Source: Parachlamydiales bacterium
GTDB lineage: Bacteria; Chlamydiota; Chlamydiia; Chlamydiales; JAJFMK01
Direction of reading: 5' to 3'
DNA length: 40,174 nucleotides
Assembly (NCBI GenBank): GCA_963765145.1
Contig: CAVXVG010000007.1
Coordinates: 1 to 40,174, forward strand
Part shown: piece after piece, positions 4,008 through 18,259 of the stretch
How positions within the stretch are numbered: the first letter of the stretch is position 1
Layout: each line of letters starts with the position of its first letter
Translations under genes and position numbers: made by a program
Notes under the pieces: model-generated
Seen by the model: the letters and a program-made list of their open reading frames with translations, nothing else
What the model was told of the DNA's origin: nothing
Databases searched by the model: none

Positions 4008-4286
4008 CTATGCGTCATTGATTGCATATTGAATTAGTCTCAAGCATTTTTGTTGAGGCGAGGGAACGACATCCAAACTGGCGACCCAATCTTGAATAAA
4101 CTCATTTGCAATTGCTATTTCCAAAAAATACTCTAAGCCAAGCGCTTCGGCCTCTAATGGTACCCCGCCTGATTGCGGCTCTCTTAAAGCCATCGCCTTT
4201 GAATTTTCAGTCCATGGTTTAAGCGCGTAGATAGTGCTTTCATCATCAAGAGTGTTTAATTTTTGAACTACATGTAGCAAAGTCAT
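4008..4286 (-). CDS. Putative immunity protein for the WHH nuclease cassette (92 aa)
   Basis: ATG 4286 overlaps the toxin stop (ATGA). Small protein with YFLEI and a LIQYAINDA C-terminus, in the canonical immunity position. Confidence 0.7.
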   Translation of the reverse strand: MTLLHVVQKLNTLDDESTIYALKPWTENSKAMALREPQSGGVPLEAEALGLEYFLEIAIANEFIQDWVASLDVVPSPQQKCLRLIQYAINDA

Positions 4287-5848
4287 TGTCCCCATATTGA
4301 ATACCCTCCTTGGCCCCCCGGATGTAATGAATCCCAAAAAATACTCCCTGGAGTATGTTGGGTGCGTGGTACAAGCTGCATCACACCTGGTTCTGCCGCG
4401 TGATGCCAAGTCCAACCACTAGGCGAAGTTCTAGGTGCTAGACCTGTAGCTGTTCTTTCTAGATTAATTCCTAACTGCTGGATCATCTGTGAAAATTGAG
4501 GGTTTTTCTCCATTGCATTTAATAAGGCTGAATTTGCTTCTTGAAAGTGACGACCTCGTGAAACCCCTGGGTACGAAGTTGCACTAATTTCAGTTTCAAA
4601 AGCAATACTATAAAATTTCCCATTTGCCTGATTAGAGGTATTGGCAATTTGCGAATGTGAGAAATTCGATTTTGTGCACTTAACCTCCTTTTTCACCAAA
4701 TCTTTAACCAAATTCACCTCTTTGGGAAGGAGAAGGCAGGAGGCACTGCTATATAGCGATTGATATACGCTAAGGCCAATTTTGGTAACCCCTGTGGCAA
4801 TAGACCCAAGTACCAGACCTTTTCTAGTACCGTTTCTGAAGTCATGATAGATGGTGTCGGAAGGGTCTGCGTTAGAAAATGATCCTAAGAGGGCCCTGTC
4901 TAAAGTATCCCAACGATTTACTCTAGCAGCTTCAATATGGGGAATTGCTGCAAGACGCTCAGTGGTGCTAAAGCCTAAATCTGATGCTCCGACATGACTT
5001 GCAAAAGACCCAAAAAAATCAATGCCCCCAAGTGTGAACTCACCAATGGGGTGGACATATTCAGCAAGTCCACATACAGAACCTCCTATCGCACTAATCG
5101 TGGAAGGAACAATGGTTTTATAAGTCCTTGAAGAAAAGCGGCCGGAGGGATCTCTAAAATTAATAGGATCGTTGTTGGCGTAGGTGTAGAGGTCGAGGCA
5201 AGTGGGGAAGCTGATTGGGTCTGGGCTTAGGAAGCGACCGATTTTTGGATCATAGTGACGGGCACCGAGATGGACGAGGCCGGTTGGATCTTGGCGGTTT
5301 CCTTGCCAAGTGTGGGATTTGGCGAAGGAGAGGAGGTTTGGTTCCAGGTTGGGCGGAGGGCCTGTAGGACCGTAAGGGGAGGGGAGTTCTTCGATCCAGT
5401 GGGTGTTGGTTGATGAGAGGATGGCTTTTAGGCTGCCAAGGGCATCTTGGAAGAGGCCTAAGGCATTTCCTTGGTTGTCTATTATTGCTTCGCAAGAGGT
5501 GGGCCCGTAAAGCTTCCAGAAGGTTTGGTTGTTATATTTAACCCCAATCTCTTGGAACTCATATTCTGGATCGAAGAGGGAAGTGGTTTGAGTGGATGTG
5601 CTCCAAAAGATCCCTTTTTGTGTGTAGGTGGTTTGCAGGCGACGGCCTAGGGCATCGTAAGAGGCTTTCCAAGTGTAGTTTGGAGTAGAGAGGGTGATGA
5701 GGTTGCCCCATGGATCCCACTCGAAGGTTTCTTTGCCATCTTTTGTTGTTCTCGAGATGGTTTGACCAAGTTGGTTGTAGGTTGTGGTGGAGGTTTTCCA
5801 TTTAGAGTTTCTGCAGGTTTTACATTCTAATGTCAAGCCTGATCCCAA
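4283..5848 (-). CDS. Orphan RHS cassette 3: partial core, pre-toxin region and WHH-type HNH nuclease toxin
   Basis: RHS core GLVHLGARHYDPKIGRFLSPDP...YTYANNDPINFRDPSG; C-terminus GWTWHH..EPGVMQLVP..QH..LHPGGQGGYSIWG. RHS homology starts only at ~5790; the TTG at 5848 lies at the edge of a REP arm. Confidence 0.85.
   Translation of the reverse strand: MGSGLTLECKTCRNSKWKTSTTTYNQLGQTISRTTKDGKETFEWDPWGNLITLSTPNYTWKASYDALGRRLQTTYTQKGIFWSTSTQTTSLFDPEYEFQEIGVKYNNQTFWKLYGPTSCEAIIDNQGNALGLFQDALGSLKAILSSTNTHWIEELPSPYGPTGPPPNLEPNLLSFAKSHTWQGNRQDPTGLVHLGARHYDPKIGRFLSPDPISFPTCLDLYTYANNDPINFRDPSGRFSSRTYKTIVPSTISAIGGSVCGLAEYVHPIGEFTLGGIDFFGSFASHVGASDLGFSTTERLAAIPHIEAARVNRWDTLDRALLGSFSNADPSDTIYHDFRNGTRKGLVLGSIATGVTKIGLSVYQSLYSSASCLLLPKEVNLVKDLVKKEVKCTKSNFSHSQIANTSNQANGKFYSIAFETEISATSYPGVSRGRHFQEANSALLNAMEKNPQFSQMIQQLGINLERTATGLAPRTSPSGWTWHHAAEPGVMQLVPRTQHTPGSIFWDSLHPGGQGGYSIWGQ
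5829..5846. repeat. Single REP-like arm at the boundary of RHS cassette 3
   Basis: AATGTCAAGCCTGATCCC is 17/18 identical to AATGTCAAGCCTGACCCC at 34986-35003. Confidence 0.65.
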
Positions 5849-17000: not shown

Positions 17001-18259
17001 CTCTTCAACCCTAGCTCTGGAACAATGAGCATCCCCTCTTCGGTCAGATAAGTATTCCATTCTGGACTGTTGATCGAAGGTAGAGAAATTTTTTCTTCCC
17101 AGATCACTTGATCTTCATCTAATACCTTAATAGTAAAGTGTGGAACAGGAGCACTTGTTTCAACTAAAATGCGATAAAATTGTCCTTTGTAATGATTATA
17201 GACTTCTTCCGTAAGGTTTTGCCCATCGAGAGGGATAGCATAGGGAGCAGGTCTAGAAAGGTAATTTTTCAAGATAGCCATCGGATTTGATTTGTTAGGT
17301 AAAAGGGCGAGACGGGTAAAAAAATGCTCCTTCCGTCTTTCTTCTCTGAGGTGAAATGATTCGATAAAGGGCTTGGATGTCTCCGATTTTGATTGATGTC
17401 GTGAGGCCTCAGCCTCCACTTTTAAAGCAAAGAGTTCTTTCTCGTCCGCAGCTTCCACGTCGATTAATTCTTGGAGGATGACCATCTTCTGCTTCGGGAC
17501 ATTTTCTAAACGCGATAACTCTTCCTTTAGCATTTGGATGCGTGATTGTTTTTTTATGGGCCATTCGTCCGCCTGCCTTTTACAATCAGCTGCTTCTTTT
17601 TTACAATTCAGGCTTGATGTCGCAAGGTTCCTTTTACTTTCTTCTGCTGCAGGATAGGTGTAAGGGGTCAAAAGCTGAAAAACTTGATTGTAACCATCCG
17701 CAGCATCTTGGTAGAGCTTCGAGGCTTCAGTTAGATAAACAATGGAAGCATCTATCTCATTCAAATGACTTGGAAAGGCATATTGCAAGACATAGGAAGC
17801 AGCTAAACTTTCATTCTCCTTACTAAGCTCGATGATTGCTTGTGCCTGATCACATATTTCTAGATAGCGGATGTGATGTTCGATATCGCGAATTTCTGCC
17901 TGATAGCCTTGAATAGTCGCGTTTGCATTCTCTCTTAGATTGCTCAGAGATTCTCGATATTGTTTATCTCCAATTTTTTCGGCTTTAATTAGAATGGCGG
18001 CATAACAAGCAATCGCTTTTTGCATATAATCACCGGCTGTTTTTAGCTCATCGATACGTTCTGCCCTATTTTGGGCCATTACACTAGTTGTAAATTTCTG
18101 AGCTTCAACTACATGCTTGTTTGCAGTTTCTATTTGAGTATCACGGAACGAGGAAAGATCGTTATTCCATTCGATTCTTCGATCAGGCTTTTTTGCATCA
18201 ACTGAGAATGTGGTGAATAAGAAAAATAAAACTGACAGGAAAATACAAGTAAATTTCAT
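14015..18259 (-). CDS. Giant RHS protein, N-terminal half: signal peptide, helical region, transglutaminase-like domain, DUF6531 and first YD repeats
   Basis: MKFTCIFLSVLFFLFTTFSVDA is signal-peptide-like. SALGTFLEGEGNAWEQCALLVYLLQEAGF resembles the transglutaminase helix. ADPVDIVSGAFYIDEVDLSL.GPFPLQIRRNYSN...LGYGW matches DUF6531. One extra A in the run at 14021-14027 would fuse it to the next ORF. Confidence 0.88.
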   Translation of the reverse strand: MKFTCIFLSVLFFLFTTFSVDAKKPDRRIEWNNDLSSFRDTQIETANKHVVEAQKFTTSVMAQNRAERIDELKTAGDYMQKAIACYAAILIKAEKIGDKQYRESLSNLRENANATIQGYQAEIRDIEHHIRYLEICDQAQAIIELSKENESLAASYVLQYAFPSHLNEIDASIVYLTEASKLYQDAADGYNQVFQLLTPYTYPAAEESKRNLATSSLNCKKEAADCKRQADEWPIKKQSRIQMLKEELSRLENVPKQKMVILQELIDVEAADEKELFALKVEAEASRHQSKSETSKPFIESFHLREERRKEHFFTRLALLPNKSNPMAILKNYLSRPAPYAIPLDGQNLTEEVYNHYKGQFYRILVETSAPVPHFTIKVLDEDQVIWEEKISLPSINSPEWNTYLTEEGMLIVPELGLKSRYGLELRLKIISEKQFLLAVKGDSLNQFSLHFEEQSLYTFSYNEPPPWQLEVLRKPVASTVQPGINSSSIKIYKESSSFTKLVGDELLPHQLLNDFVKELKNDPLLIAQYVQNEINLLDPFQFQTSKGIEAPLLQKSALGTFLEGEGNAWEQCALLVYLLQEAGFKALYAQAFCHLPTKYVEQLLFTQLAENETTTLYYPFVLLELSKNNCISLFPWMKNIQISNGHNLYSLMPDEYASANRWIQKYLSGDGEITKHIELDGNDTAGVLFIRFVEEQLKTQGLSIQDVGIHRTLVKQPFSSWEEFPRPVIENAVTYVSLPSDFLAYIDFEVCPSGRPQRGFKKRLSLPFLNGRSFAIDFPSDNKATFSLKEGWNNANIPIPSKGSPYETIFLNAQDKSLDITASYQQKDVQWTSTLSIAKGTKAALCLCFGGSSIKTTSLFAKPYLDKKQSQDNLFSLLAFTGAHYFEKCIHAEKQLAPLHEINRTTYFGLGLAKFAPDTTSDLKFPQVDMHFKSHFPSGLTLENLNRLVPWTDFQALTCADFSSNEHQVIQDVFDDKSAISTIKLLKIAHEAHQKKRLEGAGFLVLTANILAAAEKNPYLASLQFFPHLTDFSLEKTCATGKSQWDIAGQALKTGSHSVALMTPAPISNEISPTTGLPSYTGMGTLIFSPLTTHALISDSMRTMNGGFGAGLPKITIEQIFSGQWKELPTQNNFSFQKTDHQLFNKLTFHSLGLATKSYYQPEVRSWFKGTLDLVADPVDIVSGAFYIDEVDLSLLGPFPLQIRRNYSNQSPVDSILGYGWKLSLNPYLFEEDDKLFAAEEDGTVIVYRLNEETSTWTVSPEDNPDLRNFNQRGIGGIANPFHAYIEKNDETHLLYSPDGSKRIFQNNLLKKWINSAGHALSFNYDGQTLTSIESSNKSYIGFKYNHAGKIAEAYAKDGRRIYYYYNTLGDLTEVRLPNDARVGYTYDNSHQIVRETHAHGRALENTYDGKKG

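Follow-up and report, generated by a model that had tools for sequence, protein, structure and literature searches.

Large Rhs toxins that combine a signal peptide, an inactivated transglutaminase domain and RHS repeats were described in silico in 2012, when section 19 and Table 1 of Zhang et al. (PMC3482391) assigned them to a class exported by the Sec pathway and type II secretion (T2SS). The association of transglutaminase and RHS is also mentioned in PMC3239186. REase-9/Imm54, Ntox9 and an HSxG hydrolase are listed in chlamydiae by Zhang et al. (PMC3482391), who call toxin-immunity pairs of Simkania intraspecific weapons, and chlamydial polymorphic toxins are raised as a possible defence in PMC6520448. 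WapA and Rhs proteins are cleaved at the start of DUF6531 according to PMC12704120. Here, a stretch of 40,174 nucleotides from a Parachlamydiales bacterium (assembly GCA_963765145.1, contig CAVXVG010000007.1, positions 1 to 40,174, hereafter the window) was analysed, which contains a large Rhs gene followed by two orphan cassettes. It is a real polymorphic Rhs toxin locus of an environmental chlamydia. The toxin is likely exported by Sec rather than by a type VI secretion system (T6SS), and its likely targets are closely related bacteria, a reading which we hold with moderate confidence. It is built on the domain order of the protein, the loss of the catalytic triad, the exchange of tips across the family and the absence of T6SS markers from the carriers searched. 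A preliminary description of this DNA had overstated the novelty of the architecture, considering the 2012 account in PMC3482391. New here are the chlamydial clade, a conserved domain without clear structural match and a candidate partner gene limited to a Verrucomicrobia-like sister clade.

Domain order of the Rhs gene

All features of the toxin locus given below lie on the minus strand. A Sec signal peptide without lipobox was predicted at residues ~1-22 (18194..18259) with a simple sequence heuristic, which detected a leader in 60 of 69 close relatives, compared with 61 of 213 control open reading frames (ORFs). The leader is conserved, and none of the 69 relatives had a lipobox. The leader is followed by helical bundles (residues ~28-335) and a beta-sandwich (~340-465; together 16862..18193), modelled by AlphaFold with a mean pLDDT of 85.9. 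Fold searches with the helical part returned generic helical-bundle matches only. This is the variable part of the family: ahead of the transglutaminase domain ~86 to 1465 aa were counted among 48 relatives, and in the window gene ~480 aa separate it from the leader.

A transglutaminase-like domain was recognised at residues ~505-742 (16034..16747) by fold matches. It lacks the Cys-His-Asp triad and reads G-N-A at the usual G-x-C position. With the triad positions assigned by motif, the canonical Cys was replaced by Pro in 121 and by Ala in 12 of 141 relatives, the His by Tyr in 132/144 and the Asp by Phe in 132/143. Judging from these alignment columns, the domain is inactive. Behind it lies a conserved region (residues 745-1145; 14825..16027) for which fold searches with residues 745-1160, including the PDB, gave no clear match. 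The ~300-aa domain in this region is a candidate new fold, the missing match being no proof of one.

DUF6531 was located at residues 1178-1249 (14513..14728; PF20148, E 8.7e-16), after ~1175 aa of N-terminal domains. It starts at a D-P-V motif, a predicted N-terminal autocleavage site present in 125 of 174 long relatives. The Rhs/YD core (10641..14018; PF05593, TIGR03696) matches solved Rhs cages and ends in DPTG...DPSG, where C-terminal autocleavage is predicted; YD repeats and an Rhs-associated core ending in DPxG characterise Rhs polymorphic toxins. The preliminary description had listed a Sec-type signal peptide, an N-terminal region of ~1150 aa with a possibly non-catalytic transglutaminase, DUF6531 and YD repeats, all of which were recovered.

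Its single gene of about 2800 aa was not, and a frame break had been overlooked. In this assembly the gene consists of two ORFs in different frames with an overlap of 4 nt. The first (14015..18259, 1414 aa) carries the signal-like start, DUF6531 and the first RHS repeats, and the second (14018-9831, 1395 aa) the RHS core, TIGR03696 and a tip of 269 aa. The break coincides with an A7 run (14021..14027) and apart from it each half is an open frame of ~1400 codons. One continuous ORF crosses this position in 65 of 69 full-length relatives (junction within 20 aa).

The frequency of such breaks was estimated from 213 ORFs on 17 stretches of G301, a single-contig genome of the same GTDB genus, in a one-way comparison from G301 to this assembly. 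Orthologues were present here for 145, of which 18 (~12%) were split or stop-bearing. In 56,892 aa of orthologues 17 frame switches were counted, about one per 10 kb, and at this rate an 8.4-kb gene would carry one or more breaks with a probability of ~57%. This rate and the continuity in the relatives make an assembly error the probable cause of the break. In contigs from three of four peat-metagenome runs of related strains the A7 run differed in length by one base, although these contigs may not bridge it by 31 or more bases on each side; differences of one base were also seen at a break in cassette 2 and in a nearby split outer-membrane-factor gene. Programmed -1 frameshifting was considered and is not favoured, since nearly all relatives are continuous and the A7 run is not a family feature. 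Other split genes found in this assembly (G000) call for caution, with 18/145 sampled conserved genes affected.

Tips, orphan cassettes and candidate immunity genes

The C-terminus of the main gene is a toxin tip, consisting of a linker and an Ntox9-like predicted RNase (tip 1, 9834..10640). Pfam and PDB searches with this tip yielded nothing meaningful. The assignment follows from the conserved columns of 43 homologues (RxY, E, WxE, H), which fit the Ntox9 signature in the table of PMC3482391. The same tip class is terminal on a full-length relative (P0166). Overlapping its stop codon is the gene of candidate immunity protein 1 (9559..9834; 91 aa), of no known family, with three homologues and no meaningful match in a PDB sequence search.

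Orphan cassette 2 (6325..9390) holds a partial Rhs core with frame breaks near 7675 and 7300 and a Tox-REase-9 tip (PF15650, E 1.1e-26). This tip is terminal on five intact proteins, among which the 2789-aa gene of a same-genus genome (L002), where it is followed by two homologues of immunity protein 2 and further immunity-like genes are stacked. Candidate immunity protein 2 in the window (5860..6312; 150 aa) shows a weak DUF4304 match under the curated cut-off (PF14137, E 0.00098). Orphan cassette 3 (4283..5848) combines a short Rhs core with a WHH-type HNH nuclease tip (PF14414, E 2.7e-9; PF12639), the stop codon of which is overlapped by the gene of candidate immunity protein 3 (4008..4292; ~94 aa). 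This protein had no Pfam match and a single weak one to MafI (E 0.07). The homology of the main gene to both cassettes is far above chance, with 85.6% nucleotide identity over 2389 nt for cassette 2 and 81.2% over 990 nt for cassette 3. The two cassettes are 97.6% identical over 675 nt.

Clustering of 83 tips, 80 from 85 long relatives and the three of the window, some rows being near-identical, gave 16 clusters with 45 members in the largest. Variable tips thus stand on a constant core accompanied by orphan cassettes. The claims that the locus has three different tips, each with a small ORF behind it, and that tips are swapped with orphan cassettes are supported by these clusters, by the homology of the cassette cores and by the occurrence of tips 1 and 2 at the ends of intact relatives.

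In the fetched loci a lipobox-like ORF was found after 12 of 14 HSxG tips, the other two having FGC by eye, and after none of nine other tips. Hydrolase-type tips are thus accompanied by ORFs of lipoprotein type and the remaining tips by ORFs of cytoplasmic type. This fits action at the envelope and in the cytoplasm, respectively, of a bacterial target. Free-living bacteria have tips of the family as well, on proteins annotated as CdiA or Rhs.

The commonest tip class (HSxG hydrolase-like; e.g. L034:6352-6900) weakly matches the N-terminal part of DUF687 (58/300 Chlamydiota genomes). DUF687 occurs in 23 of 29 small-genome chlamydiae of family f4, which are without the carrier, and may derive from a toxin tip. 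In many other genomes the DUF687-like match lies in frames of ~1800-1900 aa, possibly a second Rhs family.

Export route, targets and alternative explanations

No PAAR, TssC or VgrG/GPD domains were detected in the source genome, which is 84.8% complete, nor in the carriers searched (TssC 0/20, PAAR 0/20, GPD 0/22), the E. coli controls being positive. The link to PAAR or VgrG and the T6SS in the same genome that define T6SS Rhs effectors were thus not seen, in agreement with the T6SS independence proposed in the preliminary description. A Tc component (PF18276) gave no match anywhere, controls included, and no TcA/TcB-like neighbour was seen. The source genome encodes domains of a type III secretion system (T3SS) export gate and of a single secretin, along with GspF-type and ShlB-like domains.

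The following mechanism is proposed. The leader would take the ~310-kDa chain into the periplasm and then be removed, the YD repeats would fold into a cage around the tip, and the chain would cleave itself before DUF6531 and after DPSG. WapA offers a precedent for export by Sec and for the cut at DUF6531. The folded complex would cross the outer membrane, with T2SS as the most likely route, although we place it slightly below an even chance, and with lysis or vesicle release as alternatives. The helical region, the dead transglutaminase and the unmatched domain may act as a surface anchor and a module for receptor binding and entry. The site of action would be the target cytoplasm for nuclease tips and the target envelope for hydrolase tips, and the downstream protein would block its tip in kin. 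Recombination via the common Rhs core would swap in orphan tips.

Several points weigh against this proposal. T2SS is general in chlamydiae and the lone secretin can be assigned to neither T2SS nor T3SS specifically, so the presence of T2SS lends weak support. The survey for co-occurring secretion genes suggested earlier was carried out, and none was a common neighbour across 25 chlamydial regions. The neighbours that recur there are Rhs fragments, ORFs resembling immunity genes and, with labels given by eye, integrase- or transposase-like genes. Contact with non-kin would be hard, since co-infecting bacteria kept separate vacuoles in the amoeba study PMC6520448. All lipoprotein ORFs belong to a single family from related genomes, and the match of tip and compartment hence does not represent many independent events; tip toxicity and downstream protection are predicted from domain matches and gene order. 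The frameshift rate comes from a comparison in one direction, and some breaks may be real pseudogenes.

The last point touches the idea that the family is as described, with the window copy being a decaying pseudogene with a real break. Three further copies of the toxin gene were found in the source genome, one of which, on contig C32, has several breaks. Cassette 2 is broken as well, and relatives L052 and L073 have IS-like interruptions. Decay is nonetheless unlikely: at the rate found in ordinary conserved genes a break in a gene of this length is readily expected, it lies inside a homopolymer where related strains differ by one base, the halves are otherwise open, and the two other paralogues, on C26, are intact (2513 and 2422 aa). 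Somewhat less probable is an effector aimed at the host, which would enter the inclusion or cytosol, with the downstream genes protecting the producer only, during synthesis and export. Chlamydiae are intracellular, the commonest tip resembles the DUF687 of f4 chlamydiae, and for a REase-9 protein of Parachlamydia Zhang et al. (2012, PMC3482391) suggested a possible role as host effector that may target host nucleic acid, which also counts against the proposal above. Orphan arrays of tips and immunity genes and stacked immunity-like genes fit conflict between kin instead, the tips are shared with free-living bacteria, the core also occurs in a related clade, some members of which are labelled Verrucomicrobia, and the carrier is absent from all 30 f4 genomes. 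The match of tip and ORF compartments favours bacterial targets. These are the best reading, as had been inferred initially, whereas the co-infecting bacteria of the same vacuole named in the preliminary description would be a conjecture.

An active transglutaminase with a rearranged site, cross-linking the toxin to a surface, was judged very improbable. C573, four residues downstream, is kept in 136 of 141 sequences and two relatives have a Cys at the canonical position, but the substitution of all three triad positions in most members argues against activity. Export as a two-partner secretion (TPS) substrate through TpsB, or via the adjacent RND/TolC-type pump, is if anything still more remote. 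ShlB-like genes occur in the source genome and 13 of 22 carriers, unlinked to the toxin, and a set of AcrB, membrane fusion protein (MFP) and outer-membrane factor adjoins the window gene. A TPS domain was found neither by Pfam search nor in the model, and with it the linked TpsB of CdiA/TPS substrates was missing; no ShlB-like gene was found in the single-contig carriers G301, with four toxin copies, and G132. The pump is a neighbour in the window locus alone, and for its MFP the three nearest relatives contain nothing closely similar. As dedicated exporters both were disfavoured on the neighbour survey, the MFP comparison and the ShlB-free carriers. The pump genes themselves (18474-24376) lie upstream of the toxin and consist of an AcrB-MFP pair and a divergent outer-membrane-factor gene, the latter broken into two ORFs.

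Distribution and comparison with known systems

The transglutaminase core was found in 21 of 301 Chlamydiota genomes (17/166 genera) and in none of the 30 genomes of small-genome family f4. Close homologues are named in Simkania negevensis, Ca. Rhabdochlamydia and metagenome-assembled genomes of Parachlamydiaceae, and G301 belongs to Chlamydiota, which supports the chlamydial origin suspected from the sequence. Integrase-like genes (label by eye) flank the chlamydial copies L034, L035, L037, L040, L043 and L046, suggesting mobility. The C32 paralogue (G000 C32:10632-14706; also L002:3565-7566; L071) adjoins a chaperone-like gene and repeated translocator-like genes (labels by eye), the latter tandemly amplified in G301.

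A quick, midpoint-rooted tree of 48 chosen rows, from which no direction of transfer is claimed, separated the chlamydial clade from a distant one with an SH-aLRT of 100. The latter was examined in 80 metagenome loci (L076-L155; GC ~0.48-0.59 where given). Verrucomicrobia is the label of two named members, but in the tree one of them is placed with the chlamydial clade. The N-termini of this sister clade contain RCC1, LamG, Fn3 or Calx-beta. A small gene coding for a leader and a ~110-aa domain that ends in an IDSPxNG-like motif (e.g. L120:7657-8073) was present in 73 of these 80 loci and, in those displayed, lies immediately upstream of the toxin. It had no Pfam match, and its profile matched nothing in the chlamydial loci or the source genome. 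It is a candidate dedicated partner.

Combining these results, the dead transglutaminase and the unmatched ~300-aa domain might be a self-contained delivery module, possibly of new fold, common to chlamydiae and the Verrucomicrobia-like clade, that takes a Sec-exported Rhs cage to the periplasm and cytoplasm of rival diderms without an injection machine. The sister clade would need a small secreted partner that chlamydiae lost. This combined idea is speculative and rather doubtful; if true, it would give obligate intracellular chlamydiae a strain-exclusion weapon.

Elsewhere in the window, positions 1-800 at the contig end have a GC content of 60-70% against ~44% for the genome, possibly foreign or mis-joined sequence. 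Short direct and inverted repeats with units of 36-38 nt were observed at 34851-35047 and 32090-32325; their motif recurs where cassette 3 starts (5829-5852) and could be a small mobile repeat.

Compared with the class of Zhang et al. (2012), the window gene shares the signal peptide, the transglutaminase with lost C/H/D residues, the RHS array and varied C-terminal toxins; an anchoring role was proposed there. In that class, as described, the transglutaminase directly follows the leader, unlike in the window gene, and the window family has the conserved unmatched domain after it. Figure 5D or the supplement of that paper may name members of the chlamydial family. In the literature searched, with subscription papers mostly outside reach, no experimental study of this architecture and no characterised delivery route were found, in line with the preliminary description. 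Since the general design was predicted in 2012 (PMC3482391), the value of the family lies in the delivery question and not in the architecture.

T6SS Rhs effectors such as RhsP, Tse5 and Tre23 have DUF6531, a YD cage, the DPxG protease, tips with immunity genes and orphan cassettes in common with the chlamydial proteins, whereas the chlamydial carriers lack PAAR, VgrG-type and sheath genes and the toxin has a Sec-type leader. WapA of Bacillus and Streptococcus suis (PMC12704120) is likewise a Sec-exported Rhs toxin of >300 kDa with cleavage at the DUF6531 start and after DPxG, polymorphic tips and immunity genes. It is described from monoderm hosts with a wall-binding N-terminus and SrtB/SecF-like helper genes, while the chlamydial toxin must pass an outer membrane and lacks a helper gene. 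Bacterial teneurin-like proteins (PMC13018210) are YD-shell toxins for which Sec export is predicted; their immunity genes lie downstream, and obvious machinery for delivery is missing. Those of Gram-negative bacteria are predicted lipoproteins, in contrast to the lipobox-free chlamydial family, and the TIP domain or teneurin superfold turned up in none of our general scans, no direct search having been made. Even in WapA and teneurin-like proteins, the way an Rhs cage acts without T6SS is an open question (PMC12704120, PMC13018210). If directed at kin, the chlamydial toxins would provide a testable basis for competition among chlamydial symbionts in one host. Next to these systems, the family adds an example from diderms in which a conserved module is defined, a candidate new fold is at hand and some members are known by name, from Simkania negevensis and Ca. 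Rhabdochlamydia.

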